Notes: generated from the sequence alone by a model not told the origin. Shown: positions 13,942-57,000, counted from the stretch's first letter. The stretch: DNA of 58,516 bases from an uncultured Bacteroidota bacterium (GCA_903911135.1 CAIWCG010000194.1:1-58516); one strand, 5' to 3'. Translations and numbers: made by a program.

Positions 13942-14118
13942 GTACTTTGAGTTCATGGGCGCGTACTTTGAGTTGCTTGGTACGTACTTTGAGTTGCTTG
14001 GTACGTACTTTGAGTTGCTTGGTGCGTACATTGAGTTCATGGGTACGTACTTTGAGTTGATGGGTAGGTACTTTGAGTTAATGGGCACGTACTTAGGCTT
14101 GCTTGGTGTGTACTTTGC
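13942..14118. repeat. 21-bp tandem array (array 3), about 8.4 units
   Basis: Consensus is GTACTTTGAGTTGCTTGGTAC. Unit junctions create the GTACGTAC palindrome. Lies upstream of the MBOAT operon. Confidence 0.9.
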
Positions 14119-17174: not shown

Positions 17175-17420
17175 TCAATCTTTCGTTGTTTCATTTTGCA
17201 AAATTACTCCTTTGTCATCGAATGGTAATATTAAATTATCGTTAAGTTTCTTGGCCCCATTTTTAAACTCATACATTCATTGATAAAAATCATCTAAAAG
17301 CAATATTTAGCCAAAAAAAGGCTCAAAAAAGACCTGAAAAAGTCAATGAATACCAGGTAAAAGACGGTTTTAATACGGGGCAAGTCGATTTGTGGTTGTT
17401 ATCGTCTCATCTTATCCCCA

Positions 17421-17590
17421 AACTTATAAGTAATGTAACATAACTTATAAGTAACTGCCCCTAACTTATAAATAATGTTACTTAACTCATAAGTAACTGC
17501 CACTTACTTGTAAGTAACTGCCATAAATTCATAAATAACTGCCACAAACTTATGAGTAACTGCCATAAACTTGTAAGTAACTGCCATGGA
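17421..17590. repeat. 21-bp tandem array (array 4), about 8 units; degenerate traces reach about 17635
   Basis: Consensus is AACTTATAAGTAACTGCCATA with palindrome ACTTATAAGT. Lies upstream of ppk1. Confidence 0.9.
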
Positions 17591-17799
17591 TAGTATAGTA
17601 ATGTGTAAAGAAGGAATAGTAATTGCCACAAACCGTCTATTTCGGTAATTGAATCGTTTTATCTGATGATTATGACTAAATATTTCATTACGATATGTTC
17701 GATTATTGGCATCAAAAAACAAATCATAAAGACATTAAAAATGCCTTTAATGAAATCAATTATTGATGATGTTTGGAAATGATTTTATCTGAAACCGCA

Positions 17800-22501: not shown

Positions 22502-23746
22502 TTACTCCTTGATTATCTTTCCTCTAACGCTGGTTGGGATTTGCAATCCCGACCCTTTTACCTCATAAAAATAAATGCCACTTCTTAAATGCGAGATATC
22601 TATCGTCTCGGTGGCAGTGTTTAATGCTTGAGAATAAACCTTATTGCCCAACACATCGCTGATGATGATTTGCTGATTTGGGGAATAAGTATCTTGATGG
22701 ATAGTGATGGTGGAGGTGGTGGGGTTGGGGAAAATGGAAATAGTTTCTTTACTATTATTTACTTCACCTATTCCACTTGCTGAATTATAAAAAACCCATG
22801 CTGCTCCAAATCCATTACTATCATTTCTTCCTCCTTCAATAATCGTATGACCATCTGATGAGATTGCAACGCTCCATCCTTGGTATACACCATTACCACT
22901 ATTCACAGCTCCAGTTCCAATCAATTTACTTCCAAGTTGTGTCCAAATATTACTTGTTCTAGTGTAAATCCATACTGCACCAGTATTGCTATTGTCATTC
23001 AATCCACCAACAACTGCTGTATCTCCAGAATATGAAATTGAAACCGTATTACCTTGAGAAGAATTTCCTACAAAACCTGTACCTACCAATTTATTCCCTT
23101 GTTGTGTCCATACTCCTCCTGTTCGAGTATACATCCAAACTGCGCCAATACCACCACCATCCCCTTGCCCACCAATTATTGAAGTATTCCCATCTGAAGA
23201 AATAGCAACTGAATTACCTTGACCACTTCCAGCAGAGCTTGTACCAATAAGTTTATTTCCCTGCTGAGTCCAAACACCACTTGTTCGTGTAAATACCCAT
23301 GCTGCTCCTTCACTGTTATTATCTCCGCTACCACCAGATAGAATTGTATTTCCATCTGATGAAATTGAAATAGATGTACCTTGATGGGCAGCACCAATAG
23401 CACCTGATCCCACTAATTTATTTCCTTGTTGCGTCCAAATGCCACCACTACGAATAAATACCCATACAGCACCCATTCCACTGCTATCGCCCATACCTCC
23501 GACAATAGCTGTATTTCCATCAGCTGAAAGAGATACAGAGTAGCCTTGCCATGCAGAACCAATTGCGCCAGTACCTACTAATTTACTTCCTTGTTGAACC
23601 CAAACTCCAGAAGATCGAATGAAAACCCAAGCGGCACCAGTATAGCTGCTATCACCAAGTCCACCCTTTATCCGCTCCATTTTGCTAAGTGCTGGAAAAT
23701 ATTCTTTAAGGTTAAGGAAAATTTCTTTAAGGTTAAAGTGCTGCAC
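22502..23746 (-). CDS. Repeat-rich T9SS cargo protein, probably 5'-truncated (no signal peptide)
   Basis: About 47-aa repeats (GA.WVF.RSGGVWTQQGNKLVGTGA..QG.SVS.S.DGNT.IVGG.GD) plus a T9SS CTD (ISIFPNPTTSTITI..GIYFYEV). The ORF begins in the middle of a repeat, and its first ~15 codons lie inside array 5. Confidence 0.65.
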   Translation of the reverse strand: MQHFNLKEIFLNLKEYFPALSKMERIKGGLGDSSYTGAAWVFIRSSGVWVQQGSKLVGTGAIGSAWQGYSVSLSADGNTAIVGGMGDSSGMGAVWVFIRSGGIWTQQGNKLVGSGAIGAAHQGTSISISSDGNTILSGGSGDNNSEGAAWVFTRTSGVWTQQGNKLIGTSSAGSGQGNSVAISSDGNTSIIGGQGDGGGIGAVWMYTRTGGVWTQQGNKLVGTGFVGNSSQGNTVSISYSGDTAVVGGLNDNSNTGAVWIYTRTSNIWTQLGSKLIGTGAVNSGNGVYQGWSVAISSDGHTIIEGGRNDSNGFGAAWVFYNSASGIGEVNNSKETISIFPNPTTSTITIHQDTYSPNQQIIISDVLGNKVYSQALNTATETIDISHLRSGIYFYEVKGSGLQIPTSVRGKIIKE

Positions 23747-23894
23747 TTTAACCTTAAGGATTATTTCTTTAAGCCTAATAATTATTCCATTTAGGTTAAG
23801 AAATATTCCATTAAGGTTAGGAATTATTCCAATAAAGTTAAGAATTATTCCAATAAGCCTAAAGAAAATTCCATTAAGACTAAAGAAATATTTC
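23702..23894. repeat. 21-bp tandem array (array 5), about 9 units
   Basis: The right-hand five units are exactly 21 bp (for example ATTAAGGTTAGGAATTATTCC) and contain the palindrome GGAAT-T-ATTCC. Left units are more degenerate. Confidence 0.85.
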
Positions 23895-31441: not shown

Positions 31442-31729
31442 GTTAGGTTTCAACTGTAACGTGACGGTATTGGACTCTGTTGCCACGAACTTGGGTTTCG
31501 TTCGAACGAACTCCAGGTTTGTTGCCAACAGTTGGAGGTTTCAGACCAAGTTAGAGCATTTTGTTGCCTTGGAAACCAGTTTCGTTCGAACGAACTCCGG
31601 CTGTGTTGGAACGAACCCAAAACCTGTCGCGACAATGTTCCAGCGTACGCGACAAACCCCGGCACCGTCGCAACAGAATCCAACTTCGTTCCAACGAAAC
31701 CCAAGTTCGTTGGAACAGAGTTGAACTTC
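31442..31729. repeat. About 21-bp tandem array (array 6), 13-14 units, with overall dyad symmetry
   Basis: Units start with palindromes GTTCGAAC, GTCGCGAC or GTTGCCAAC. The right arm (about 31667-31729) is close to the reverse complement of the left arm (about 31476-31530). Confidence 0.85.
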
Positions 31730-31880
31730 AAGGCAAGGTATTTTGAGGTATTTTAAACGGAATTGGAGCGTATTGAAAGAATTAATGGATTGGTGACGAT
31801 GGGATAATGGCAATTGGCATTTTGTTATTTTTATTGGCATGAGCCTTTTCGCCGCAGCCAGGTATTATTCAAAAAGTTGT

Positions 31881-32011
31881 TTCGAAGCTACCTGCCATCA
31901 AAGCATAGCCCCGATAGCAGCGGCAGCCCGCTGCTTGGTGTCGGTATTGGGGATGCAGCGGCTACAGCGGATAGAGGGACGTAGATGGGACGAGAAGAAA
32001 CCGTAGGCTCC
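31881..32011 (+). repeat. Conserved ~130-nt element, copy E2
   Basis: Same core as E1. The tail is AAAAAATTAGGAATTAGGGATT and abuts the next gene. Confidence 0.85.
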
Positions 32012-35206: not shown

Positions 35207-35338
35207 GGAGCCTATATCCTCCACACGTATCAAGGTGCGTCCCGCTATCCGCTGTAGCCGCTGCCTGCCCATTTCCGACACAAAGCAGCGGGCTGCCGCT
35301 ACTATCGGGGCTATGCTCTGACGGCAGGTAGCTTCGAA
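35207..35338 (-). repeat. Conserved ~130-nt element, copy E4 (inverted orientation)
   Basis: Its reverse complement matches the E1-E3 core. The segment between GGGACG and ATAGGCTCC is replaced. The tail is AATTAGGAATTAGAAATTA. Confidence 0.85.
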
Positions 35339-35420: not shown

Positions 35421-35614
35421 ATATGACGGACGATGCGGCTTATATCACGGACGATGCGGATGATATGACGGACGATGCGGATGATATGACGGACGATGCG
35501 GATGATAGTACGGACGATGCGGATGATAGTGCGGACGATGCGGATGATAGCACGGACGATGCGGATGATAGCACGGACGATGCGGCTTATATCACGGATG
35601 ATCCGTCTTATAGG
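35421..35614. repeat. 21-bp tandem array (array 7), about 9 units
   Basis: Consensus is TATGACGGACGATGCGGATGA. The first and last units carry GCGGCTTATATCACGG variants. The last unit has the palindrome CGGAT-G-ATCCG. Confidence 0.9.
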
Positions 35615-35651: not shown

Positions 35652-35782
35652 TTCGAAGCTACCTGCCGTCAAAGCATAGCCCCGATAGTAGCGGCAGCCC
35701 GCTGCTTTGTTTCGGAAATGAGGAGGCAGCGGCTACAGCGGATAGCGGGACGAAGATGGGACGAGAGGAGGATATAGGCTCC
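35652..35782 (+). repeat. Conserved ~130-nt element, copy E3
   Basis: Same core as E1, with the same AATTATAAAT-type tail. Confidence 0.85.
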
Positions 35783-39445: not shown

Positions 39446-39516
39446 GGTCGCGTGGCCGAGCGGCTAGGCAGAGGTCTGCAAAACCTCGTACAGCAGTTCG
39501 AATCTGCTCGCGACCT
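39446..39516 (+). tRNA. tRNA-Cys (GCA)
   Basis: Hand-folded cloverleaf. Acceptor stem GGTCGCG/CGCGACC; anticodon stem GAGGT/ACCTC with loop CTGCAAA (anticodon at 39478-39480); T-arm AGCAG-TTCGAAT-CTGCT. CCA is not encoded. Confidence 0.9.
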
Positions 39517-39550
39517 CGAAAATTGTTTCAGTCGGAGACATTTCGAGTAC

Positions 39551-42524: not shown

Positions 42525-42618
42525 CGATGATCTGTATTGAATAAACCTACTTGTCTGTCTTTGCTATCTAGCCGCCAAAACTAAACAATTCCAAACAAAA
42601 AGCCCAATAAAACAATAA

Positions 42619-42644
42619 GTCTCCCCAACATCTGTCGGAGAGAC
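42619..42644 (-). terminator. Rho-independent terminator (minus strand), probably the ancestral terminator of the 113-aa gene
   Basis: Minus-strand hairpin GTCTCTCC-(10 nt)-GGGGAGAC followed by TTATTGTTTTATT. Confidence 0.65.
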
Positions 42645-42670
42645 TTTCATGAATCTTTACCTCTTCCCTC

Positions 42671-42815
42671 CTACGGCACCGGACTATCTATATAAGTCAT
42701 GAATCCTTCACCACAAGTTTTCAAGGGGTCGGCGATGACGAACTTGGTGGAGGGGAGGATGTGCAAGGTCTCCTTGCTTTCGGAGTGTTCTTTGCAGAGG
42801 GGGAGGATGTATATG
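42671..42815 (-). pseudogene. Start-less 3' fragment, a displaced copy of the C-terminal ~48 codons of the 48109..48450 gene
   Basis: 42642-42815 aligns with 48081-48258 at roughly 90% identity by eye, including identical runs of 34 and 48 bp. There is no upstream coding continuation. Confidence 0.8.
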
Positions 42816-42854
42816 GTCAGGTCTTTGGGTCTGGATATTTTATCTAAACAATAT

Positions 42855-42975
42855 TTGAGGATACCATTAAACCCTACTTCTCTTATGCCAGAAAACCTGT
42901 GGCAATCTGGATTTCTAATTGGATAATAGTTGATTGGAGGATATGAAAATCCTTAATAGTTTATCCACAGGATGT
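42855..42975 (-). repeat. Cassette-junction repeat R1 (hairpin part conserved, promoter part degenerate)
   Basis: ..CATTAAACCCTACTTCTCTTATGCCAGAAAACCTGTGGCAATCTGG..AATTGGATAATAGTTGATTGGAGGA.. aligns with R2-R4. Confidence 0.75.
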
Positions 42976-42995
42976 AACTTTGGATTGAAAGCAGG

Positions 42996-44414
42996 TTATT
43001 CTTCCTTTTTCTTTTCGATAAAAACCCTGAAATGATAGTTAGCATCAATTTTCTTTTGGTACTCCTCCAAAATCATTTCATAAGTCAAACCGAAATCAAA
43101 TTCAGCAATGACACCTTCAATATATGGTTGTGGATCAAATCCGGTATTATGACAATAAATAAGCAATCCTTCGCAGGCAAAGAAGATTCGATTGGCAATT
43201 TCCTCCAAGATTTCACCTTCCAGCATCAATTTCCTTCTTTTAGGATTGTTTTCATCCACTTCTCCTGTTATTTTCCCTTCGGCAAGAAGATCTCCCATGA
43301 TAAAATAATTCCTGGCATCGCGATCATGGATAAAGAAGAGAAGAAAAGGCAACACAGACATTTTATGAAACCATTTCATGAATGTTTCACTGCTTTTCCA
43401 GTCATCCTCTTGCAGTATCAAGGTACTGCCTGCTATCTCCTCAAAAATGAACTCAAAGGCAAAAAGGCTTTTTTCTATCAGTAGTGGAAAATGCTGTAGG
43501 GCAAGGACTATTTCTTGAAATGAACTTTGCTCTTCCGCTTCTACGGCTGCAACAAGAACATGGATATTGGGAGTATGAGTCATCAAATTGCAATATTTTT
43601 TAAGAAAATCCATGTTCTTATAGATAACCTTATCACCAGGCAGCAGAAAATATTTCGGTCTTCCGGGTGCATCCAATATATCCTTAAAACTATCAGAAAG
43701 AGATGTATCCAAAAGATATTCTCCTAACAGTATGGTGTCTGTCATGGTCGATAATTCCTTCCAAAGTGCATACGATTCCCCCACAATTCCCATCAGGTCA
43801 TTATATCTATCCATGATATCGTTGCAGGTTTGGGTATGGTCGTCGCCATCAATATTATCCCTACTGTGATGTCTGCTGTATAAGTGATAATCTTTCTTGA
43901 AAGATTCCTTGTCAAGCGATAAATCTTCCATCTTGTCAATCATTATATCCCTGTTTTTGTAAAAACTCATGTAATCATCGTGGAACGCATCATAACCCAT
44001 CACATATTCTTCCCTTACAGTTCCATAATGTGCCATTTCATTGCCAAGCTTATCGATATGATTCTCATGAAAAGGGGTTATTTTCTCAAAAAGCTTATCT
44101 CTGTCAGCAATCAATTTATTGGTTGCCATCTTAGAAGTTGTGCGTTCGGCAACCAATTGTTTTGCTCTTGAATGATACGCTTCAATTGCTTCAGCAATAG
44201 GCTCAAATGCAGATTTTGCCAGTGAAACATGTTGGTCCAGTTCATTGAATATGTTCAATAGATTTTCCCGTTCAGGATAAAACCTGATTATATAATCATG
44301 AAGTTTGATATATTCTTTCAATAGGTCGATTTCAAATTCCTGTTCCAGCTTTTCATCGTCATACCTCAACACTATCGGTTTCAAAGGATGAGGAATTATT
44401 TTCTCTATCAGCAT
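42996..44414 (-). CDS. Hypothetical protein, orphan cassette gene
   Basis: 472 aa from the ATG at 44414; the track ORF uses an upstream TTG inside repeat R2. I recognised no motif. Acidic and helical. Confidence 0.65.
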   Translation of the reverse strand: MLIEKIIPHPLKPIVLRYDDEKLEQEFEIDLLKEYIKLHDYIIRFYPERENLLNIFNELDQHVSLAKSAFEPIAEAIEAYHSRAKQLVAERTTSKMATNKLIADRDKLFEKITPFHENHIDKLGNEMAHYGTVREEYVMGYDAFHDDYMSFYKNRDIMIDKMEDLSLDKESFKKDYHLYSRHHSRDNIDGDDHTQTCNDIMDRYNDLMGIVGESYALWKELSTMTDTILLGEYLLDTSLSDSFKDILDAPGRPKYFLLPGDKVIYKNMDFLKKYCNLMTHTPNIHVLVAAVEAEEQSSFQEIVLALQHFPLLIEKSLFAFEFIFEEIAGSTLILQEDDWKSSETFMKWFHKMSVLPFLLFFIHDRDARNYFIMGDLLAEGKITGEVDENNPKRRKLMLEGEILEEIANRIFFACEGLLIYCHNTGFDPQPYIEGVIAEFDFGLTYEMILEEYQKKIDANYHFRVFIEKKKEE

Positions 44415-44427
44415 GTCTTTATTTTTT

Positions 44428-44500
44428 TGCAAAGATACACATTAAACCCCACTTCTCTAATGCCGGAAAACCGGTGACAAGATGGGGTGTTAATGGAATT
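44428..44500 (-). repeat. Cassette-junction repeat R2
   Basis: TGCAAAGATACACATTAAACCCCACTTCTCTAATGCCGGAAAACCGGTGACAAGATGGGGTGTTAATGG. It overlaps the HEPN stop codon. On the minus strand it supplies TATCTTTG 15 nt before the next ATG. Confidence 0.85.
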
Positions 44501-44897
44501 CAGATGTAATGTTCATTTTCTTATGAACAAAATCTCTTATGTTTTTTGCAATTAGTATGGCATTGTTCGTTTCTGCCTCCGTTAATTCAATGGTAGTTTC
44601 AGGGTATCTGATTTCAACTGCATAATCTGCGAGTTCCATAATGCTGACAATCATGATTTCGTCTATTGATTCTTTGGCATTTATAAGTTCCAGCAGATAA
44701 ACCAAATCATGAGTTCTTCTAAACTCCACTTTCAAATAGATAAGATAGGCCTTTAAGTATTTTTCGACTGCCTGCTGGCAGTGAAATGCCGTTACATGAC
44801 GGTATTCTGGGATATGCATTTGTATAACCAATGCAGTACCCAAATCTTCATCTCCTTTCTCCACCCATTTCCTTATGATATCCATTTTATCGTTCAT
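44490..44897 (-). CDS. HEPN domain toxin (HepT-like)
   Basis: 135 aa. R-x4-H motif in EFRRTHDLVYL. Overlaps the upstream MNT gene by 11 nt. Confidence 0.8.
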   Translation of the reverse strand: MNDKMDIIRKWVEKGDEDLGTALVIQMHIPEYRHVTAFHCQQAVEKYLKAYLIYLKVEFRRTHDLVYLLELINAKESIDEIMIVSIMELADYAVEIRYPETTIELTEAETNNAILIAKNIRDFVHKKMNITSEFH

Positions 44898-45201
44898 ATA
44901 AAGTAGTACAGTTTTTCATTGCAGACGATAAGAATGAATAAGGATTCAGCAAGTCATCATTAAATTCTGATGGGGTATAAACCTTTAAGTCCATTGGTAC
45001 AAAAGAACCGAATAAATATTTTCTTACCTCCCGACCGCGACTTTGTTTTGGAAGGTCGGTATCCTTAATCACAATCAAATCCAAATCACTGTCCTCATTA
45101 GGAGTTCCATTGGCATAAGAACCAAATAAAATCACCTTTTCAGGCGCATAATTCTGAACTATCTTATTGACAATTTCAGTGATTTTTTCCTTTTTAATCA
45201 T
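44887..45201 (-). CDS. Minimal nucleotidyltransferase antitoxin (MntA-like)
   Basis: 104 aa. Motif LFGSYANGTPNEDSDLDLIV (GS..DxD). Confidence 0.8.
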   Translation of the reverse strand: MIKKEKITEIVNKIVQNYAPEKVILFGSYANGTPNEDSDLDLIVIKDTDLPKQSRGREVRKYLFGSFVPMDLKVYTPSEFNDDLLNPYSFLSSAMKNCTTLYER

Positions 45202-45225
45202 AACTGATTTTTTTATTTATCTGAA

Positions 45226-45345
45226 TGCAAAGATACACATTAAACCCTACTTCTCTAATGCCGGAAAACCGGTGACAAGATGGGGGGTTAATTGGATTAT
45301 TGGTGATTGGAGGAAATATAAGTCCTTAGTTTATCAACCTATAAG
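45226..45345 (-). repeat. Cassette-junction repeat R3
   Basis: Same sequence as R2, plus the extension AATTGGATTATTGGTGATTGGAGGAAATATAAGTCCTTAGTTTATCAAC shared with R1. Confidence 0.85.
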
Positions 45346-45371
45346 CCCTGAAATCCAATAAGACTAAACAG

Positions 45372-45752
45372 TTATTTTATTGTATAGCTTGGTTTGTTTG
45401 GATGCATCGGATTTGGCATCAGCTTTTGGGTGGCAGGATGAACGACTAAATCCATATCTTCCATAGGCACAGCCCCAAGCAATGTTTCATCACCAATAAC
45501 TAGAGCCCCAACAAAACAAAATCGGTTCTCAAAGTCAACCCGTATAGGGCCTACATAAGGAACCTGATGCGAACTGCCATCAGCTATGGTAACAGGGCGT
45601 TTATCCAATTCCTCCAGCTCCAATTGATAGGCCACAGATTGTGGAATGCACAACATTAATGCGCCGGTATCTACCAATGCATCTATTTCAACGGGCAATA
45701 GTGAGGCATTGCGCGGATTACTAAGTTTTATCTTTGAATAGGTTAAGCCCAT
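45372..45752 (-). CDS. Retropepsin-like (clan AA) aspartic protease, stand-alone
   Basis: 126 aa. Catalytic ALVDTGA, and the later ILGAVPMEDMDLVV-type segment typical of bacterial single-domain retropepsins. Confidence 0.7.
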   Translation of the reverse strand: MGLTYSKIKLSNPRNASLLPVEIDALVDTGALMLCIPQSVAYQLELEELDKRPVTIADGSSHQVPYVGPIRVDFENRFCFVGALVIGDETLLGAVPMEDMDLVVHPATQKLMPNPMHPNKPSYTIK

Positions 45753-45792
45753 TGTATTATTTGTTAAGAAACTTCTCTAGAATTTTTAAGAA

Positions 45793-45880
45793 TGCAAAGA
45801 TACACATTAATCCCTACTTCTCTAATGCCAGAAAACCGATGGCAAGCTGGGGTGTTGATTGGATTATTGGGGATTGTAAG
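45793..45880 (-). repeat. Cassette-junction repeat R4
   Basis: TGCAAAGATACACATTAATCCCTACTTCTCTAATGCCAGAAAACCGATGGCAAGCTGGGGTGTTGATTGGATTATTGG. It overlaps the last codons of the HNH-like gene. Confidence 0.85.
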
Positions 45881-46543
45881 AATTAGATTTTCTTTTACAC
45901 ATTTCAAAAGCTGTGAAGAACTGATTAACTGCAAATTCTTCATAAGGTTTATCTGTCAATTTAGTTTGCTCTATAATCGGTTGTATTATACCCTTTCTAT
46001 TTGCAATGATTGTTGGGTGATTAATTCCTAAAGTTTCAAGCATTTTAGTAACTCTTTCTTTATCATTTGGCGACAAATCGGGATTTGGGATAAAAATATG
46101 TTCCTTTTCATAATAGAAGAGTAATCTAAACTCATCATATTCAGGCTCATCAGGTTTAAGTATGTAATCAACCTCTTTTCTCCCCTTAACTTTAGCAGAA
46201 TTAACATCGGAATGAATCATAAATAAATTAGACCATAACCAAGCTTTACTTGCTTTTAAGTTAGGATCAAAATGATCTAATTCACCAAATGATTTATCTT
46301 CTCCTTCAAAACAATAACATCCATCTTTCCAATTTAATGTTTCATAAAATATCTCATCACATAATAAAGATTCTGTGTAAGCACAAACACCTTTTTGGCA
46401 ATAGAATAGACTCATCACAACATCTTTGTAAAACTTGTTGTTGATGAATTATATACTCCATGATTTCTATCATCATTTTCAAGTACTTCTTCCCAAGATT
46501 TGTATTGAGTAGATTGAACAACAGACTTATCAATTTTCCTCAT
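45864..46543 (-). pseudogene. ptuB: PtuB-like HNH (TIGR02646-type) nuclease gene, apparently split by a frameshift near 46415-46425
   Basis: The 184-aa ORF (45864..46418) has CAYTE, ELDHFDP, WSNLF and a LETLGINHPTIIANRKG-type tail. A 42-aa ORF (46415..46543) starts 3 nt after the ATPase stop and reads like the missing N-terminus, but in another frame. Confidence 0.55.
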
Positions 46544-46546
46544 TTA

Positions 46547-47911
46547 TTACCAAACATCATAATTAATTTTACCAGTATCCCATCCTATTTTTTCAGCGAG
46601 TTTTTTATAATCATTCCATGTTTTGTCAATCAAGTCTTTATCAGCTTTTTCAATTTTCAGTTTCTTTAATTTCTCTTCTAACTGAGCCAATTCAACTAGT
46701 TTAGGAGTTCTTTCCTTGCTATTGCCATCAGGTAGAAAATCATAAACCTTCTGATAAATTGTATCCCATCGCATATATCTTGGGTCAATAAAATAATTAT
46801 CAACATGATTCTCGCCCCTGTAATATTTATCTCTTAAAATATATCCATCTTGATTGAACTTCAATTCTGCAATTTCCCAAGGTTCAAAACATGATAGTAT
46901 AAAAGCAGAATGTGTTGCGAAAAAGAATTGTGAATTCTTAGCCAATGAAGTATATATTTCAATAATCTCCGCTTGAATATCAGGATAAAGAGAGCGTTCT
47001 GGTTCATCAAAGAAAATACCACAATTATTAGGTTTAAGATAATATAATGGGATTGCAGAAATTATTATTTGTTTTGTTCCTGTACTTAATGAATCAAAAG
47101 GTATTATTTCATTCGTATGTACATTCTGAATCTGTAAATTCAAATCATTAACATCCTCCAATTCTGTTTTAGTTTTTAAATGGAATTTATTCAGAATTGG
47201 ATCAAGACAATTCTGTGCTAAATCACTAACTGGGTTTGGATTTTCTTTTAACCAATTCTGATATTCATTTTTTAACTCATCAGAGTTTTCCTTCATTATT
47301 TTTTTAGAAATCTCAATTCTGAAGTTTGTTTCTTTTATCCTATATTGTTGAACTTGAATAAGTGCGATGTCCAAGGCTCTTCTAGCATCTTGAATATTAA
47401 AAAAGTAAAAAATAGATTCCATAAATATTCCCCCACTGGGTATATCATTTTGTTTTTCAGCAGGGTAACTCAAAACACTTATATCGAGTTTTGTCCGAAT
47501 TCCTCGAAAATGTTCTAAAGCTTGCTTCACTGTCATTTGTATAGAATCAACAATGATGTTATCAATAATTGCTACTTGGTTATTTTCAATTACAAAATCA
47601 TAAGATATTCGATAATTATCAGTAAATGAAAGGCGTATATATGCTCCTTTGGGTAATTGTATATTAAAACTTTCTAAATATAAAGTAGGATTAAATTTAT
47701 CAGTATGGGCAATAAAATTGTAATCAAATTTACAATGAAATCCTAATTGTATCAACTTCAGCAATGTAGTTTTACCAGTCCCGCTTTGTCCAATAAAACA
47801 AACTTTATCCAATGGCTGTCCTTCCTTTGGATGTCCCTGTGGATAGGTTAAGTCAAGAGTAAAATCCTTGAATTGATAAAAATTCTTGAGTTCTATTTTC
47901 TTCAGTTTCAT
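46547..47911 (-). CDS. ptuA: PtuA-like ABC/AAA_15-type ATPase (Septu-like)
   Basis: 454 aa. Walker A GQSGTGKTT, signature-like LSTGTKQ, Walker B IFFDEPERSL, H-loop FFATHS. Confidence 0.6.
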   Translation of the reverse strand: MKLKKIELKNFYQFKDFTLDLTYPQGHPKEGQPLDKVCFIGQSGTGKTTLLKLIQLGFHCKFDYNFIAHTDKFNPTLYLESFNIQLPKGAYIRLSFTDNYRISYDFVIENNQVAIIDNIIVDSIQMTVKQALEHFRGIRTKLDISVLSYPAEKQNDIPSGGIFMESIFYFFNIQDARRALDIALIQVQQYRIKETNFRIEISKKIMKENSDELKNEYQNWLKENPNPVSDLAQNCLDPILNKFHLKTKTELEDVNDLNLQIQNVHTNEIIPFDSLSTGTKQIIISAIPLYYLKPNNCGIFFDEPERSLYPDIQAEIIEIYTSLAKNSQFFFATHSAFILSCFEPWEIAELKFNQDGYILRDKYYRGENHVDNYFIDPRYMRWDTIYQKVYDFLPDGNSKERTPKLVELAQLEEKLKKLKIEKADKDLIDKTWNDYKKLAEKIGWDTGKINYDVW

Positions 47912-48108
47912 TTTAACGTATTTACTATTATAAGATTCGCAAAACTAACAAAATTTATCCATAAAATTTATAGCATTTTTTATCTTTGAAGATACTGGTG
48001 CAATTTATAAGGCATGCTTTTGACTCTAAAATCTGAAAACATTTTTAAACCAATAATCAATATTATATCAATTTCAAATGACTTTCTTAAATCTTTACTC
48101 ATTCCTCC

Positions 48109-48450
48109 CTACAGCACCGGACTATCCACATAAGTCATGAATCCTTCGCCACAAGTTTTCTTGATGTCGGCGATGACGAACTTGGTGGAGGGGAGGATGT
48201 TCAAGGTCTCCTTGCTTTCGGAGTGTTCTTTGCAGAGGGGGAGGATGTAGATGGTGGAATCTATGGGTTTGGTTTGCAAATCCAAACCATCCAGTTTATG
48301 AACATGCGTCCCTACGATGTCCACCTTGCCACATCCTGCCACCACGCAGCCTGTTATCTGGCGGAAGCTGAAGTTCTTGTAATGCTGAAACCAGTTGCCG
48401 CATCTACAATTCTTTTCTGTCGGCTTACTGCTGATTTTTACTTCTATCAT
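48109..48450 (-). CDS. Small Cys/His-rich protein, possibly a zinc-binding HNH-like fold
   Basis: 113 aa. Has CRCGNW..H, GCVVAGCG, VGTHVH and ILPLCKEHSE. Its 3' third is duplicated at 42671-42815. Confidence 0.6.
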   Translation of the reverse strand: MIEVKISSKPTEKNCRCGNWFQHYKNFSFRQITGCVVAGCGKVDIVGTHVHKLDGLDLQTKPIDSTIYILPLCKEHSESKETLNILPSTKFVIADIKKTCGEGFMTYVDSPVL

Positions 48451-48522
48451 TGTGTTTATTTTTATTATTGTTTCTCATTTTGTTAATCCCTTTTTATGCT
48501 TGATTATGCCTTTTTGACAAAG

Positions 48523-48761
48523 TTTGAAGGAATCTTTACATTCCTTCAAACAATGTCAACATTGTTTGAAGAAGTCCTTACATTCCTTCAAGGTATGTGA
48601 ACATTGTTTGAAGAAGTCCTTGCATTCCTTCAAGGTATGTAAACATTGTTTGAAGAAGTCCTTGCATTCCTTCAAGGTATGTAAACATTGTTTGAAGAAG
48701 TCTTGACATTCCTTCAAACAATGTCAACATAGTTTGAAGATATCCTTACATCCCTTCAAAG
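48523..48761. repeat. 42-bp tandem array (array 8), about 5.7 units
   Basis: Units start at 48523, 48565, 48607, 48649, 48691 and 48733. TTGAAG..CTTCAA and AAACA-T-TGTTT inverted repeats. The terminal units differ from the three inner units. Confidence 0.9.
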
Positions 48762-48781
48762 TTTCGTCTTTTAGCTAATTT

Positions 48782-49699
48782 TTACCTGTTTACAGTGATT
48801 TGAATAATCAAATCGAAGCCTTGAGGTCCATCTTTGGTTATAATTTGATGCATGAACCACACCTCTATTCCTCCGGCTAAACCTGTAACTTGGGTACTGG
48901 CCTTGGTAGTTGGCAACATTCTATCGAAGGAAACTCCATCAAAAGAGATATGCCAATCATGACAGCCATTAGATGTGCCTGAACCAGCAGCAGTAAGATG
49001 GATGGTTCCTTGCACCACCGAATTGAAGGCACTCCAAGGTTGCTTTCCTCTTGGAGTAATGGTTTTAACTGTGAACCCTCCTGATTTTATCCCCACTTCC
49101 GCCGTTCCAGGGTTAGAATTTCCATAAGTTTGATAAAGAAACATGATCGCCTGCATGGCATTGTTCAGCAGCGTGAAGGTGGATTCTTCGTTGCCCGACC
49201 CAGAATTACCGTAGTTGGTGGCCAATGTTCGTCCGGCAGTTACGGTAGCCGGAGGTACGGTAACATAAGTGGTGGTAGCCATCAAGGTAAACATGTCCAT
49301 GGCCTGTTTTGTCTTGTCGGCCTTGCTGCCTTTCCAGTTTATGGTGGCGATATACTTCTTCTGCATCACGGGCAAGGACATCAAGACGATTTGCCCGTTG
49401 TATTGGTGGGCATCCACCCCATTTGCATTCAACCTTTTCAAGTCAAATGCGCTGATGTCATAAATCACCACCGACTCATCCATGGTTTCGTAAAGATTGT
49501 TTTTGAACATCTCAAAACGAGCCAAGATAAAGTTCACCAACCATAATACAGGAATCAAGAATCGTGATGGTGATTTCACAATTTCTTCCTCATCCATGCC
49601 AAATTCCCTGATTTGGTCATTCTTCAATGCTCTTTCCGAACATTCCCTGTGCTTCCTGGCGGTGTAGGATTCTTCAGGTCTTTTTACTTTGATTTTCAT
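48782..49699 (-). CDS. Hypothetical protein with an FN3-like C-terminus (P305)
   Basis: 305 aa. C-terminus GIEVWFMHQIITKDGPQGFDLIIQITV. Leader AATTAAAAAATTAAAAACATG resembles that of P217. Confidence 0.6.
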   Translation of the reverse strand: MKIKVKRPEESYTARKHRECSERALKNDQIREFGMDEEEIVKSPSRFLIPVLWLVNFILARFEMFKNNLYETMDESVVIYDISAFDLKRLNANGVDAHQYNGQIVLMSLPVMQKKYIATINWKGSKADKTKQAMDMFTLMATTTYVTVPPATVTAGRTLATNYGNSGSGNEESTFTLLNNAMQAIMFLYQTYGNSNPGTAEVGIKSGGFTVKTITPRGKQPWSAFNSVVQGTIHLTAAGSGTSNGCHDWHISFDGVSFDRMLPTTKASTQVTGLAGGIEVWFMHQIITKDGPQGFDLIIQITVNR

Positions 49700-49913
49700 G
49701 TTTTTAATTTTTTAATTATTATTAAAGATTATTCATTATGTGGCGGCACTTCCGCCATCGGTGGCAAAATTAGAGCGCCATCCACCCGAAATCCTTACAT
49801 AATTAATTATAAGACTTGTATGATTCACCTGCCTCTTAAGCAAACAAAAAACCGGTATCGACAATGAAAAGGAATGAACCGAATCACCACCCAAAACAAG
49901 GGAAGTTATTCGT

Positions 49914-50564
49914 CTATTGCTTTATTTGGAGGAGGTAATATTTCTTAATAATCCATTCTTTAATAATTCTATCATAAAATTTTGAATAGAACATAAATGA
50001 AAAATCATCCTTCCAAAGTATTTGATCATAAGCTTCATTATTTAGTTTTATTTTTATAACATTTCCTGTATTTATGTTTTTGAAGAATACTAATTCAAAG
50101 TAGGAAGTAATATATTCGGCAGAAAAATAAGCATAAAATAATTTTGAAGGAGAGAATATAAAAGAATCGAAAAGAGAGGTGTCGATTATTCCATTTTTTT
50201 GATTTACTAATAAATGTCTAATGTTAACAAGTTTTTGAATGACTAAGAAATATTTTATATCCTTATCATAACCTAAATACATGTATTGTTGGTAATCAAT
50301 ATCAGGATTATCTAAATTATTGGTGAACACCACTTCCTTCCCATTATCCAGCGGCAGTTTCAGCACACCATTTACTTTTTTAATCTTAGTAGTATCAATA
50401 ATAAAATCATCCTTTGGTGGCAAGCCATGCGAATAATAATAAGCACTGTCCACTTCCTTTAAAATATAGTCTTTGGTTTCTTCAATGACCTTAAAGTCTT
50501 GGGCATTGGCATTAATAGCCAAGAAGAACAGGCAGACATTAAGAAAGCATTGAGGCAATTTCAT
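49914..50564 (-). CDS. Secreted hypothetical protein (very AT-rich gene)
   Basis: Start taken at MKLPQCF..AINANAQ (signal peptide). N/K/I/Y-rich. Confidence 0.6.
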   Translation of the reverse strand: MKLPQCFLNVCLFFLAINANAQDFKVIEETKDYILKEVDSAYYYSHGLPPKDDFIIDTTKIKKVNGVLKLPLDNGKEVVFTNNLDNPDIDYQQYMYLGYDKDIKYFLVIQKLVNIRHLLVNQKNGIIDTSLFDSFIFSPSKLFYAYFSAEYITSYFELVFFKNINTGNVIKIKLNNEAYDQILWKDDFSFMFYSKFYDRIIKEWIIKKYYLLQIKQ

Positions 50565-51041
50565 ACGGCAAAGATAGATAATGACCAATTATTTAACAGG
50601 TATTCAGTATTTATGAGGAAGGAAATCAGTAATGGATAGATAAATGTACCCATTTGTGGCATATTCAAGATATTCTTTGTTTGTGATAGACATTTAAAGC
50701 TTAATGTCATCATGGATAATGATTTCCGATTTGGAATCTCAAACAGCAAATTATTTAACCTAATAAAGGATTTATCGCTCCTTAATTTCATCGAGTCACC
50801 GATGGCAAAAATCCATTATTAGCAAAGCTTTCAATGTTGCTTCTTAGTTCAGGGAATGTTAAATGTTTGCATAATCCCAATAAAAATGAAGAAAACATGA
50901 AAAACATGACGTGGGTCATAGGAGTGCAGTAGTCATCCCATTAATATTGCAACCTTAATACCAAGAACCAAAACAACATATCAACTTAAAGGGGAAGCTG
51001 AAAACCGCATAGAGTAAGCAACAATTAAACAACATAAAAAC

Positions 51042-54000
51042 ATGGAAACTACCATTTACTCAACGTCAAACAAAGGTGTAACAAGGTCTTTGATGATTAC
51101 GATGACCTTCGTACTTTTACTGTTCAGCGCCAACCAAAGTGCTGCCTGGACGCAAACGTATCAGATTTCGTCGTCAAATCAATTGCTTTATTGCTATTCC
51201 AATTGCGGACCTGATTCCTATTACGGAGCATCAGAAGGAGGCGATATAGGCTTTACCTGGAATGACAATCTGGGGTTTGGAGTGAATATCAGTTCCATAA
51301 CCATTCGATTTAGAGTAGGTATGGAGTGCAATTGGGGAGATAAAAGCACCACGATGAATGGCAATTATGCAGGCATGTTTTCTACTACAGATAATTGCGA
51401 TTGTTCGCTTTCCATAGATCCAATCTTTACCCTTAACCCAAATCCGGGTGATTATGTAATAGGGGGTGCCAATACTTTTTTAGTAACCAACCTTCAAAAT
51501 AACTTTGGCTTTTTTATGGATAATGATACGCTTGGCGGTTATGCAATGATAACGGTTGAATATACTCAATCGCCATTCATCTCCAGCTATTCTACAAACA
51601 GTGCCTGTATTGGAAACAACATCATTATTCATGGTACAGGTTTGGCAAATGTCAATTCGGTAATGTTTTTTGATAATGTAGCAGCAACTATCCTATCCAC
51701 CGATGCAACAAGCGTTATAGTAGAAGTTCCATCGGGTGCTACCTCCGGTCCCATCACTGTTTCTAATCCTGACGGAAATTATGTAGGAGGTGATTTCTAC
51801 ATCAATGGAACGGCACCAATAATAACCTGTCCTAACGGGCAGGTACTTTATTCAGGTCAAAACGATTGCCAAGTTGAAGCAACATTCGATGGAATGACCT
51901 CAGATGGAGTGGTAACCTATATTTATAATTCCAATTACATCAGTTCTCCATATTTCTTTCCCATTGGGCAAAATATGGTAGAAATGAATGTGATGACGGG
52001 CAATTGTAATATTGCATGCTTTTTCAATATCTCCGTTCTCGATACCGTTCTTCCAATACTGACACCCTGCCCATCCGATGTGGTGCAGGCATGTGCAGGA
52101 ATCATTTCTTATGAGACGCCCACTGCTACAGATAATTGTTCGATTAGCATGGCAGCAAGTGTTACTTATGCCTATACCGGAACACAACAATCTTGGACCG
52201 TGCCTCAAGGATTAACCAATATTCAGGTTGACCTTAGCGGTGCTCAAGGAGGAGGTACACAGTTTGGCAGCGATGGCGGAGCAGGCGGACGAGTAACCGC
52301 TACACTACCAGTAAATGGAGGGCAGATACTATATATATATGTAGGTGGAGCGCCAACGGATAATTCCGGTGGATATAATGGCGGAGGCGGTTGTTATGGA
52401 AACGGATATTCAGGTTCTGGAGGTGGAGCCTCAGACATCAGATTCGATAGTCCTGATTTAGGCAATAGAAGGATTGTTGCCGGTGGTGGAGGTGGATCAG
52501 GAGCAAATTGTAATTCATCGGACGAATGGGGTGGAGCTGGTGGTGATTTAATAGGTCAGACTGGTTACCAATGTGGCGGTAATTGTTGTTACACTGGCAC
52601 AGGAGGAACTCAATATTCAGGAGGTTATGACCAATATGGTTATGGTGCTTCAGGAGCATTTGGTAATGGAGGAAATGGTATTTGGGATGGCGGCGGCGGC
52701 GGTGGTGGTTTTTATGGTGGTGGTGGTGGAAGCTACGGCGGTGGCGGTGGCGGTAGCAGCTATACCGATCCATCTGCAATGAATGTTGTCCACACACAAG
52801 ACTATCAGGTTGGTAATGGTTATGTTATCATAAATTATAATCAAGCCTATCCTACCGTTACCCAAACATCCGGCTTGCCATCAGGTTCCTTCTTCCAAGC
52901 TAATGTAACGACCAATACTTTTGTAGCATCCGATCAATCAGGTAACACGGTTGCATGTTCTTTTAATGTAACAATAGATGATATTACTCCTCCAGTTATT
53001 GCTGGTTGTCCTGACGATATATATTTAGCATGCCCTGGTGTTGTTGATTATTTCCCACCAACAGCATCTGATGATTGCGATTCGGTTTTAGTTTATCAAG
53101 CGGGAGGTTTGGCTCCAGGCTCTAATTTTGTAAATGGAGCAACTATCAATACTTTTATTGCAATGGATGCCACTGGCAACACATCACAATGCTCATTTAC
53201 GGTAACAGTAAGTGACTATACCCCTCCTGTAATATTTGATTGCCCAGGTGATGTTGTTTCCTCTTGTCCAACAACTGTAGATTTTAATCCTCCAACAGCT
53301 TCAGATGATTGCAATGATGTAAATATCCAACAAACAATAGGATATGGTTCAGGTTATTATTACACAAGTGGGGTTTCTGTTAATACCTTTGTGGCAATAG
53401 ACGGATCTGGGAATACTGCTGAATGTACCTTCACGGTTACAATATCAGATGTCGATGCTCCTGAATTTACAAGTTGCCCGACCGACATTACCATGGCTTG
53501 TCCCGATGTAGTTTCGTATGATATCCCAACAGCTACCGATGCATGCATCTATTTAACAATAGTGCAAACTTCCGGACTTGTTTCTGGTTCTTTCTTCCCA
53601 AATGGAATCACAACAAATACCTTCCAAGCTACTGATGGATCAGGAAACACATCAGTTTGTACTTTTAATGTTTCCATTGATGATTCCACTCCTCCAGAAA
53701 TTGCAGGCTGTCCAGCCGATACTGTTATGTCATGCCCAGGAATCATTAATTTCAATATGCCAACAGTGTCAGACAATTGTACCTCTTCTGCAAACGGAAG
53801 CATAACATTTTCCTATACTGGAATAATTGAGAACTGGATGGTTCCTAATGGTGTTCCTACAGTAACAATTACAGCGCTCGGAGCCCAAGGAGGTCAGAGC
53901 AGCGGAGGTTCAGGAGGATTAGGTGCAAGTATGACAGGTATGGTTTCGGTTACTTCAGGTGAATCATTAAAAATCTTGGTTGGCCATCAGGGCTATTACG

Positions 54001-57000
54001 GAACACAAGGTGGTGGTGGTGGTGGTTCTTTCGTGACAGATAACAGTAATAACCCATTGGTAATTGCCGGTGGTGGTGGTGGTGGATATAATGGAGGAAG
54101 TTCCAGTTATTCAGCAAATGCAAATGGATCAATTTATACACAAGGAAATTCTGGTGTTTATGGAAGTGGAAATACTTATGGGGGAGCAGGTGGAACAAAC
54201 GGTGGTGGCGGAAATTGCTCCCCTCAATTTGGGAGTTCAGAAGGATCTGGTGGTGGTGGACTTATTGGCAACGGTTCAAATTGTTATGGGACAACAGGCG
54301 GGTACTCTTTTGTAAATGGTGGTGCTGGAGGTTCAGGAAATGGAAGTGGAGGAGGCGGAGGATTTGGTGGCGGTGGCGGTGGCGATTGGTATTATTGGAC
54401 AGGTGGTGGCGGTGGCGGTGGTTATTCTGGTGGTGGTGGTGGCACGTACTATGGTGTTGGTGGCGGAGGCGGATCATTTAATGCTGGCACCAACCAAACC
54501 AATAATGCAGGTGTAAATCCCGGCAATGGTTTGGTAATAATTTCATGGAATAATACATATCCAATGATTTCACAAACATCTGGATCACCTTCAGGTACCT
54601 TTATTGTAGCAAATACAACAAATACTTTTACGGCAATAGATGGCTCTGGCAATACATCTATTTGTTCATTTAATATAACTGTTAATGATAACACACCTCC
54701 TGTATTCGCTAATTGTCCTGCCGATATTATTTTATCTTGTCCTGGTAATGTGGATTATATTACTCCAACAGCTACCGATGATTGTGCCATTGTTAATGTG
54801 GAACAAACTGCTGGTTTGCCAACAGGATCATATTTTGCAAATGGAGTTATGATCAATACTTTTTTAGCAACCGATGCAGCTGGCAATACGTCTGTTTGTA
54901 CTTTTTCAGTAACGGTGAGTGATTACACTCCACCAGTAATTTCAAATTGTCCAACAGATTATGTTTTATCATGCCCTGGAGTAGTTGAATATACCACTCC
55001 AACAGCGTCTGATGACTGCATTATTGTTAATATTGAACAAACAGTAGGTTTGCCTACAGGTTCTTTTTTCCCAAATGGGGTTACTATAAATACGTTTGTT
55101 GCAACAGATGGATCGGATAATACTTCTGAATGTTCATTTTCTGTATCTATCAATGATAATGTCCCTCCCGTAATTGCTAATTGCCCAATAGATTCTGTTA
55201 TGTCATGTCCAGGAATAGTTAATTTCAATATTCCAACTGTGTCAGATAATTGTTCTTCAAATATAAATGGCAGCATTACTTTTAACTATTCAGGTTCAAT
55301 CGTAAGCTGGATTGTACCTACAGGAGTAACATCTGTTTCAGTATTGGCATTAGGTGGTCAAGGGGGTAGTGCAAGCGGAGGAGTTGGTGGATATGGTGCA
55401 AGTATTATTGGAACTTTTAATGTAACGCCTTCGGATAATATTCAAATACTTGTAGGACAACAAGGTGGAAACAACGTCGTGAATCAATATTATCGTGGTG
55501 GTGGTGGCGGAGGGGGCAGTTTTGTTTATAATTCTTCTTCTTCCACTCTGATGTTAGCAGCAGGTGGTGGTGGTGGTGCCGGACAATATGGATATGGAAG
55601 TTCTGTCAATTCTGATGCATCAATAACAACTAATGGAAAGTCTGGATATAATGGTGGCTTTGGCGGTTCATCTGGTAATGGAGGTGGAGCATCTTCTTAT
55701 GGTAGCGGCGGAGCTGGTTGGAATTCTAATGGTAACAATAGCGGTTACTCAACAGGAGGTTCAAGGTTTCATGGTGGTGGATCAGGTGGAAACGGGTATT
55801 CTGATGGTGCCAATGGTGGCTTTGGCGGCGGTGGTGGTTCTTATGCTGGTGCTGGTGGCGGAGGTGGCTATTCAGGTGGCGGAGGCGGTGGATGGTCTTA
55901 TTCAGGTTACGGAGGCGGAGGCGGTTCTTATAATGGAGGAACAAATCCTATAAACACTGTAGGAGTCAATAGTGGAAATGGTTTGGTTGTTATTTCATGG
56001 AGTAATGTTTTTCCTAATATAACACAAACTTCTGGATTGGCATCAGGTTCATACTTTGCAAATGGAATTACAACGAATACATTCATTGCAGAAGACGGAT
56101 CAGGTAATACAGCGTCTTGTTCTTTTATAATAACAGTGAACGATGTAACTCCTCCTGAACTTTTCAATTGCCCATCTGATATTTCTGTTTCCTGCCCTGG
56201 AATAATAATATTTGGTTCACCAATAGCGAATGATGATTGTGGCGTTGCTACTGTCGAGCAAATTATTGGGTTAGTATCAGGAACTATTTTCCCTTCTGGA
56301 ACAACTGAAGTTATGTTTAGAGCAACTGATGGATCAAACAATACTAGTACTTGTTCATTTAATGTAATTGTAGATGTTGATAATACCCCACCAACTATTG
56401 TTGGTTGCCCATCAGATCTAACAGTTAATTGTTCAAATATTGTTTCATTCGTTCCGCCAACAGTTACAGATAATTGTAACAATATTTCTTTGTCTGGAGG
56501 AAGTCAAACCTTTAATTATACAGGCACAATACAACACTTTACTGTTCCAGCAGGAGTTACATCAGTTAATCTTGATGCTTTTGGTGCCCAAGGGGTTGCA
56601 GTAGGCATGTATTCAGGAAATGGTGGAGAAGCAAAAGGTACAATGGCCGTTATTCCTGGACAGGTTTTGAATGTATTTGTGGGAGGACAAAATTTATTTA
56701 ATGGAGGTGGAACAGGTTATCATGGTGCAAATGGAGGTGATGCAACCGATATCAGATATCCTTCAACATCTATGAATGACAGAGTAATAGTTGCTGGCGG
56801 CGGCGGCGGAGCTGGTGGAGATAATTGGATATGTCAAAGTGGGGTAGATGGAAGTGGTGGTGGCGGAATTGCTGTGGGGCAAAATTTTGTCGGAGGATCT
56901 GGAGGTAGAGGTTATGCATTTTGTGGAACATCTGGAGGCACGAATGGTGGCACATCAGGCAATTCCTATCATGGTGGTGGTGCAGGTGGCGGTGGGCTAA

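Follow-up and report, generated by a model that had tools for sequence, protein, structure and literature searches.

A short repeat with a promoter-like box marks the junctions of an integron-like cassette array in an environmental Bacteroidota bacterium

The 58,516-nt stretch of DNA analyzed here, from an uncultured Bacteroidota bacterium (GCA_903911135.1, CAIWCG010000194.1:1-58516), harbors on its minus strand an island of four gene cassettes, each of which carries at its 3′ end one copy of a conserved intergenic repeat. The whole stretch is referred to as the window and its numbering is used for all coordinates; the repeat, ∼90-135 nt in length, is referred to as the module and its four copies as R1 to R4. 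The island is a real cassette array of an integron-like and rAID-like kind, integron-like being meant in terms of layout. The module is restricted to the array and belongs to a family with members in a second lineage. The island is present or absent between relatives, its first cassette is replaced in another strain, a tract of 2.5 kb is identical between that strain and the window, and a 211-nt duplication brackets the insertion.

Organization of the cassette island

The minus strand is the coding strand of the island, and all island genes lie on it in the order gene113, PtuA, PtuB, R4, protease, R3, MNT and HEPN, R2, 472-aa gene, and R1. The cargo was annotated with Pfam, PADLOC, and NCBIfam. 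The features of the island and its edges are as follows.

48109..48450, minus strand: gene113, a small Cys/His-rich gene; the island starts ∼27 nt past its stop codon
48080..48290, minus strand: upstream copy of a 211-nt direct repeat (85% identity), made of the gene113 3′ end plus 27 nt
45889..47953, minus strand: cassette 1, Septu-like PtuA/PtuB (PADLOC; extent set by homology with contig L013; GC 0.30)
46547-47911, minus strand: PtuA (PADLOC, 2.4e-66)
45864-46543, minus strand: PtuB, HNH nuclease (PADLOC, 9.7e-14)
45790..45885, minus strand: R4, module between PtuB and the protease (core 45825-45837; 100.8 bits)
45372..45752, minus strand: cassette 2, 126-aa clan AA aspartic protease (TIGR03698; GC 0.43)
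45223..45340, minus strand: R3, module between the protease and MNT (core 45258-45270; 98.8 bits)
44490..45201, minus strand: cassette 3, MNT nucleotidyltransferase and HEPN, a toxin-antitoxin-type pair (GC 0.35)
44887-45201, minus strand: MNT
44490-44897, minus strand: HEPN
44425..44519, minus strand: R2, module between HEPN and the 472-aa gene (core 44460-44472; 86.5 bits)
42996..44414, minus strand: cassette 4, 472-aa protein without an assigned family (GC 0.37)
42851..42965, minus strand: R1, terminal module 3′ of the 472-aa gene (core 42885-42897; 86.9 bits)
42642..42852, minus strand: downstream copy of the 211-nt direct repeat, a 5′-truncated, diverged gene113 remnant abutting R1
42617..42646, minus strand: the only intrinsic-terminator-like hairpin on the coding strand, 3′ of the whole island

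A first-pass annotation, made from the sequence of the window, had listed the cargo as a toxin-antitoxin pair, a Septu-like pair, and orphan genes, and this agrees with the MNT/HEPN pair, PtuA/PtuB, the protease, and the 472-aa protein. The adjacent PtuA ATPase and PtuB HNH nuclease place cassette 1 in the Septu family. The GC content of the core genes is 0.44; the Septu, MNT/HEPN, and 472-aa cassettes are lower (0.30-0.37), and the protease, at 0.43, is not. The flanking genes of the window encode core functions, namely DnaB, polyphosphate kinase, TGT, LptF/G, Kdo transferase, MgtE, and cargo proteins of the type IX secretion system. No Phage_integrase domain is present in any window open reading frame (ORF) of at least 90 aa. 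The annotation had also reported the lack of an intI gene, and neither IntI nor another recombinase is encoded in the window, which covers 42 kb on one side of the island and 10 kb on the other.

The PtuB-like HNH gene contains a -1 frameshift at 46415-46420 that splits it into ORFs of 42 aa and 183 aa. The same split is found in independent samples (L003 and two ENA contigs), and the homologue on L013 is intact at 221 aa. The split gene is either a pseudogene or subject to a programmed frameshift.

Detection of the module

A repeat search of the window recovers the module as a direct, co-oriented repeat in four copies (42842-42954, 44417-44529, 45215-45327, and 45782-45894), all on one strand within 3.1 kb. 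A 25-mer taken from the core has four matches at up to three mismatches, compared with an expectation of 0 from 100 shuffles. A covariance model of the module places the copies at 42851-42940, 44425-44515, 45223-45313, and 45790-45880, all on the minus strand and with scores of 86-101 bits, which bears out the earlier description of four cassettes that each end in a repeat of the same orientation. With its filters off, the model detects no fifth copy in the remaining 55 kb (the runner-up scores 15.8 bits, E=1.7), and it scores none in the related island-free loci. Rfam returns no match to R1-R4 at gathering or permissive thresholds. To judge from the window, whose other 55 kb holds 0 copies, the module is no generic intergenic element, and the genome-wide element that the first-pass annotation had set against its own proposal was not seen there.

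The distribution also bears on the possibility that the module is a dispersed non-autonomous mobile repeat (MITE, REP, or BIME-like), or that the array is an artefact of assembly. A short, non-coding module with a hairpin would suit the former, and short contigs do break at the repeat. However, a dispersed repeat would have to account for the empty remainder of the window, for the uniform orientation of copies that lie exactly at every cassette boundary, and for the lack of terminal inverted repeats and target duplications in them. An artefact is opposed by the gene order, which independent assemblies and junction-spanning unitigs recover alike. Such an origin is highly improbable.

Anatomy of the module

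The module was aligned in nine copies, consisting of R1-R4, one variant from a second strain (L002, ENA ERZ4200879), and four copies from a metagenome contig, L010. Read along the coding strand, the module is composed of a tail box (CCTCCA..CAATAATYCAATTA), a variable arm, a 13-nt core, a 21-nt spacer, and a -7 box. The core, GGTTTTCYGGCAT, is invariant in nine out of nine copies from two distant lineages. It is flanked by short inverted arms, TGCCR/YGGCA, around an asymmetric 9-nt loop or spacer, CNGGTTTTC. The spacing between the core and the -7 box is fixed at 21 nt in both the window and the L010 lineages, and the promoter-proximal half is the most conserved stretch of the module.

The 3′ element of the module, GTATCTTTGCAT, contains the Bacteroidota -7 consensus TAnnTTTG, and the -7 box of the module reads GTATCTTTGCA. 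At 0 mismatches GTATCTTTGCA is confined to the module within the window, and it is therefore regarded as a part of the module and not merely as a generic promoter consensus. The box was predicted to lie 15-45 nt before the next start codon in R2-R4, and the measured distances are 15 nt in R2 (box 44430-44437, ATG 44414), 26 nt in R3 (45228-45235, ATG 45201), and 42 nt in R4 (45795-45802, ATG 45752). A block of identical sequence, TGCAAAGATACACATTAAACCC, had been assigned to these same three copies; R2 and R3 match it exactly, and R4 differs from it at one position. In R1 the block is degenerate, with TATCTTTG, which is retained in R2-R4, changed to TATCCTCA. The terminal R1 thus has a degenerate -7 box (TATCCTCA) and is fused straight to the 5′-truncated copy of gene113. 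Two of the junctions overlap stop codons, as was first noted, with R2 covering that of HEPN and R4 that of PtuB, whose final five codons and stop codon come from the R4 tail.

The -7 motif suggests that the module has promoter activity. The view that the module carries a Bacteroidota-type promoter box ahead of the next gene is upheld. The Septu cassette has its own promoter-like box, TAGTTTTG, ∼20-30 nt 5′ of the PtuA ATG.

The secondary structure of the module is less conserved than its sequence. The inner hairpin pairs in 78% of cells of the alignment, and its one covariation, G-C in L010 as opposed to A-T in R1 and R4, is indistinguishable from shuffles with nine sequences. An imperfect outer inverted repeat had been claimed for every copy. 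It is visible in the sequence of all four window copies, but as folded DNA it departs from shuffles in R2 only (z = -5.3, a palindrome with a single bulged base), the values for R1, R3, and R4 being -0.3 to -1.2. The L010 copies have z-scores between -1.0 and -2.3, and the outer palindrome is absent from several of them. A terminator hairpin had likewise been proposed for each junction. A scan for intrinsic terminators, defined as a GC-rich hairpin followed by a T-run, finds none in R1-R4, and a terminator role is rejected because no T-run follows any of their hairpins; the single coding-strand hairpin of this type is the one at 42646-42617.

Comparison with integron attC sites

In integron attC sites the R and L boxes contain AAC/GTT triplets that are conserved, and they are accompanied by an unpaired spacer, by extrahelical bases, and by a terminal structure that varies (PMC4889954). 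Their structure is conserved more than their sequence, promoters are rare in integron cassettes, and large chromosomal integrons have homogeneous attC sites that are more alike within an array (PMC4889954). The cargo of sedentary integrons includes genes of the toxin-antitoxin and anti-phage type (10.1101/2024.07.02.601686). The first-pass annotation considered R1-R4 to be attC-like. In that case the island would be a true integron array without an integrase (CALIN), with IntI acting on the folded bottom strand.

The island shares with CALINs and sedentary integrons a tandem arrangement of co-oriented cassettes, each closed by a related repeat that is ∼60-130 nt long and contains an imperfect palindrome. 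The overlap of the sites with stop codons, the low GC, and the strain-variable cassette content are also shared. The toxin-antitoxin and anti-phage cargo is like that of sedentary integrons (10.1101/2024.07.02.601686), and the repeats are more alike within the array, as are the homogeneous sites of large chromosomal integrons (PMC4889954). The R2 palindrome, with its single bulge and with AAC...GTT ends 55 nt apart, also speaks for attC sites.

The sites themselves diverge from this pattern. The R″/R′ boxes (RYYYAAC...GTTRRRY) fit at 11-12 of 14 positions in R1-R3, for example as AATTAAC...GTTTAAT. The AAC...GTT pairs are 55 nt apart in R2 and R3, the best pair of R1 is 70 nt apart, and R4 reads GATTAAT, in which the GTT triplet is missing. 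Nine attCs from class 1 integrons on E. coli plasmids, extracted by the same rule, served for comparison; the seven short ones (57-70 nt) match at 13-14 of 14 box positions, with folding energies of -14 to -20 kcal/mol. A proxy covariance model for attC sites, which was built from seven class 1 attCs and is not that of IntegronFinder, finds two of three held-out attCs (dfrA12 at 28.9 bits and qacG2 at 24.2) and misses the 133-nt dfrA17. In the window the best score of the proxy model is 10.8 bits (E=1.5) and lies outside the repeats, R4 reaches 8.5 bits (E=8), and R1-R3 give nothing, as do L010 and L002. The repeats therefore score at most 8.5 bits on this model, compared with 24-29 bits for the held-out attCs that it finds.

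In R1-R4 the sequence is conserved and the structure is not, which is the reverse of the attC pattern. The conserved element is the central 13 nt and not the AAC/GTT ends, and an unpaired central spacer is lacking. A promoter-like box, which is rare in integron cassettes (PMC4889954), is present at each junction, and the island is bracketed by a 211-nt repeat of the 3′ end of a host gene and not by attI. Membership in the attC/CALIN class is rejected because there is no integrase in the window, the fold is not conserved, each site has a promoter-like box, the boxes fit poorly, and the proxy model returns noise, with the caveat that the training sites of this model are proteobacterial. The repeats are not a canonical attC array, and there is very little chance that the island is a CALIN.

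Comparison with rAID-1 arrays and defence hotspots

The rAID-1 arrays of Bacteroidales consist of a XerD-like recombinase and co-oriented short genes of low GC, with intergenic motifs that are repetitive and 'reminiscent of integrons' (Ross et al. 2019, 10.1101/471110; PMC12247911). The island resembles them in phylum, in its co-oriented short genes with GC <41% (the protease at 0.43 excepted), in its defensive cargo, in a conserved repetitive intergenic motif, which can be likened by description, and in the evidence of inter-strain transfer. It contains the two or more co-oriented genes with GC <41% by which rAID-1 arrays are recognized; a XerD-family recombinase at the head of the array, which is also part of that definition, is missing, and the gene in the upstream position is the 113-aa gene113. 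In contrast with rAID-1, the island carries anti-phage and toxin-antitoxin genes and not genes for type VI secretion or interbacterial immunity, it has only four cassettes, no XerD-family recombinase adjoins it, and its host is an environmental member of the Bacteroidota.

The island also shares with defence islands and hotspots, which are exchanged by homologous recombination between conserved neighbouring genes, a variable content between conserved flanks, presence and absence between relatives, and a near-identical tract in a diverged background. Unlike ordinary hotspots, it has one conserved repeat with a promoter-like box at each of its internal gene boundaries.

The module family in a second lineage

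On L010, a 5.8-kb contig from a soil metagenome, an MNT gene is accompanied by the gene for the closest homologue (45% identity) of the 472-aa protein. At every gene junction L010 has one or two copies of a 126-nt unit in a single orientation, and the core, the 21-nt spacing, and the -7 box of this unit are identical to those of the window module. In the part 3′ of the core, the window copies are 85-100% identical to one another and 28-47% identical to the L010 copies. The copies evolve in concert within a lineage, as their 3′ parts are far more alike within lineages than between them, and in this they are like the attC sites of large chromosomal integrons (PMC4889954). The distant homologues of the 472-aa protein on L011, L012, and L014 are single genes with no module array, and hence the 472-aa gene is not obligatorily linked to the module.

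Two copies have a mosaic composition. In its left arm R1 shares 70-80% identity with the L010 copies and 55-60% with R2-R4, and its right part is of the window type, at 85-90% identity to R2-R4. In the copy of the second strain, R4′, an R2-type core is joined to R4-type downstream sequence. These patterns are suggestive of chimeric copies that switch type at the invariant core or close to it.

The nearest PtuA homologue (57% identity) lies on contig L013, downstream of a gene of the gene113 family (L013 60-410). The DNA homology between L013 and the window covers 45889-47953, includes the TAGTTTTG box, and stops exactly at the start of the R4 tail, which defines the boundary between cassette and module. 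The module covariance model finds no scoring copy on L013. This contig, from an ENA metagenome, opens with 58 nt (1-58) that resemble an Illumina adapter, which would make them a contaminant of the assembly.

Scans of JGI metagenomes and IMG/VR for exact patterns of the core and the promoter blocks gave 0 matches, and a scan of GTDB genomes for exact patterns gave one chance match inside a coding region of Emticicia. Since these collections returned nothing useful, the module family is either rare or diverging too fast for exact patterns.

Insertion site and strain variation

The island lies between the gene113 stop codon and the terminator hairpin at 42646-42617, and the 211-nt direct repeat, whose copies are 85% identical, brackets it. 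The repeat had escaped the first-pass annotation, which also lacked the promoter-like box of the Septu cassette and the invariant 13-nt core. The product of gene113 (113 aa) has no sequence match in Pfam, NCBIfam, PADLOC, or PDB. Its AlphaFold2 model is unusable (pLDDT 46), and the resemblance of its Cys/His pattern to HNH proteins is no more than an impression.

A related locus, L008, displays the site without the island; its gene113 is 96% identical at the protein level and is followed directly by the same terminator hairpin. The upstream copy of the repeat resembles the L008 allele except at its tip, and the downstream copy is a diverged allele joined to an L008-like terminator. The gene113 remnant is 85-87% identical to several alleles, and no single source allele is picked out. 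The island is an insertion that is present in some relatives and absent from others. A single (Campbell-type) crossover with DNA that carries a homologous segment would leave a flanking duplication of this kind.

Integration at the tRNA-Cys (GCA) gene (39446-39517) was considered and rejected, since 3 kb with core-type genes separate it from the island, no integrase is present, and no repeat of its 3′ end is found nearby.

The second strain, L002, retains R4′, the protease, R3, MNT/HEPN, R2, the 472-aa gene, R1, and the remnant, in this order. In place of Septu its first cassette consists of a terminator and two reverse-strand genes, of 95 aa and of 130 aa (SCO4402 family). The variation in cassette content between strains that had been anticipated is thus observed, with Septu replaced in L002 and the island missing from L008, and the variable cassette is the first one, which adjoins the fixed gene. 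A second small promoter-like repeat is present in L002, where a block of ∼45 nt, TCACCATTATTTDGCTTGCAAAGAAAAGGATTTTATTGGAG, lies upstream of each reverse-strand gene (1310-1370 and 1768-1820).

Over 42789-45312 (2.5 kb) there are 0 differences between L002 and the window. The chromosomal flanks of the two strains are ∼2.3% divergent, which predicts ∼59 differences in a tract of this length, and the regions of gene113 and the 305-aa gene are 9-15% divergent. The two diverged backgrounds have therefore come to share the array recently. The identical tract stops within the protease gene on one side and within the remnant on the other, not at module edges, and the left junction of the first cassette is shifted by ∼15 nt between the strains. 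Both observations favour tracts of homologous recombination over a fixed att site.

The genes for gene113 and for proteins of 305 aa and 224 aa (48109-50588) form a three-gene group that recurs in relatives with different neighbours, including L006 (3611-5894). The encoded proteins measure 106-120 aa, 305-329 aa, and ∼190-224 aa, respectively. The group is 9-15% diverged between strains whose flanks are ∼2% apart.

Models for the function of the module

The reading that we favour, tentatively and as a plausible account more than a probable one, is that the module is a portable promoter and a shared sequence for stacking, replacing, and homogenising cassettes, mainly by homologous recombination after DNA uptake. 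The locus is a strain-variable stack of phage-defence, toxin-antitoxin, and other cassettes inserted between the gene113 stop codon and the terminator that belongs to gene113. The 3′ half of the module, with its 21-nt spacer and GTATCTTTGCA, may act as a Bacteroidota-type promoter that lets each downstream cassette be transcribed alone. The GGTTTTCYGGCAT core between its inverted arms, together with the flanking genes, would supply the sequence in common that allows cassettes to be added, replaced, and homogenised; both this role in recombination and the promoter activity are inferred. Exchange most likely proceeds through ordinary homologous recombination or gene conversion following uptake of DNA and not through a dedicated integron integrase.

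Several points weigh against this reading. Homologous recombination alone leaves unexplained how 13 nt stayed invariant between lineages with cassette proteins of only 45% identity, and a binding site for a protein, either a recombinase or a regulator, would explain the invariant core better. The promoter is predicted from the -7 motif; a canonical -33 TTTG was not found in the module at the usual distance, and only a TTAG lies 19 nt upstream. The arm similarities of the chimeric copies were compared over segments of 20 nt, and members of the family were found in only two lineages, with two variants among strains. As the contigs were assembled from metagenomes, the identical tract could partly reflect assembled sequence of a shared population.

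A purely regulatory role would make the module a duplicated promoter and operator, at which one transcription factor binds GGTTTTCYGGCAT and co-regulates the island with no movement of genes. The fixed distance of 21 nt between the core and the -7 box in both lineages is in line with this role, as is the strong conservation of the promoter-proximal half. It does not account for the conserved upstream tail box, for a dead terminal R1 fused to a gene remnant, for the chimeric copies, or for the sharing of one 100-nt upstream sequence by unrelated genes of low GC. We consider a purely regulatory module improbable, although regulation is compatible with the portable promoter favoured above and does not exclude it.

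The main alternative is that a site-specific recombinase acts on the module and is encoded in another part of the genome; it may be XerD-like, as in rAID-1, or a different enzyme. The TGCCR/YGGCA arms around CNGGTTTTC would then form the core site, and cassettes would move as circles, each with a promoter half. This view explains better than the favoured one why the core is invariant in nine copies from two distant lineages while its surroundings diverge. The short inverted arms with one covarying pair and an asymmetric spacer, the co-orientation of all copies, the change of type at the core in the chimeric copies, and the position of the variable cassette beside the fixed gene also agree with it. 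The rAID-1 arrays provide a precedent, as they pair a tyrosine recombinase with co-oriented low-GC genes and repetitive intergenic motifs (10.1101/471110; PMC12247911). On the other hand, the window, which extends 42 kb from the island in one direction and 10 kb in the other, encodes no recombinase. The first cassette has a left junction whose position varies, and the recent exchange tract ends inside genes and not at modules. The covariation of the arms is not significant, and their 9-nt spacer is longer than expected, since the core sites of tyrosine recombinases usually have spacers of 6-8 nt. A recombinase target is possible but on the whole unlikely.

In its boldest form, which we regard as rather doubtful, the island would represent a previously undescribed cassette platform that is unlinked to its integrase, in which an enzyme acting in trans cuts the invariant GGTTTTCYGGCAT between the inverted arms. 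What moves would be a unit of the form 'promoter half - gene(s) - tail half', and the platform would be a separately evolved functional analogue of integrons that provides every cassette with a promoter and stocks anti-phage systems.

Additional repeats and genes

The window contains eight tandem arrays in intergenic positions, with repeat periods of 21 or 42 nt (1-176, 4658-4833, 13942-14117, 17419-17601, 23697-23892, 31478-31712, 35421-35602, and 48522-48762), and the sequence of the unit is different in each. The array upstream of gene113 is completely different in L002 (241-480) and in the relative L006 (5290-5500). An unrelated Bacteroidota genome, L011 (GCA_964631835.1), has an array of 16 units of 21 nt at 8721-9056. 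These arrays look hypervariable. The Flavo-1 RNA (RF01705) is found above the gathering threshold at three positions, 295-377 (plus strand), 35234-35316 (minus strand), and 35674-35756 (plus strand), and a fourth, Flavo-1-like copy lies at 31868-32011. Each copy adjoins one of the tandem arrays, and two of them flank the array at 35421-35602 in inverted orientation.

The plus strand from ∼50900 to 58516 is occupied by a very long repetitive ORF with 234-nt repeats that runs past the end of the window; its product looks adhesin-like and has Gly-rich stretches. Few ORFs are listed in this region for that reason. In L011, a SET-domain gene lies between direct repeats of ∼190 nt (11488-11629 and 12199-12394). 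Part of the repeat is the final 54 nt of the 512-aa gene that lies upstream and is homologous to the 472-aa gene, and the arrangement is an insertion with a duplicated 3′ end, as at the island.

Implications

How accessory genes are assembled and reshuffled outside the Proteobacteria is poorly understood. To our knowledge, the rAID-1 clusters of the gut are the only integron-like arrays so far described in Bacteroidota. The locus displays a design of the rAID-1 kind, with co-oriented low-GC cassettes and one conserved repeat, and it departs from the rAID-1 clusters by its host, an environmental member of the phylum, by its anti-phage and toxin-antitoxin cargo, by a promoter-like box at each junction, and by having no linked recombinase. 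If the module is a recombination site, the island would represent a new system of cassette capture with a compact 13-nt target. If it is only a module of homology and promoter, the island shows a defence stack growing and spreading between strains by ordinary recombination.

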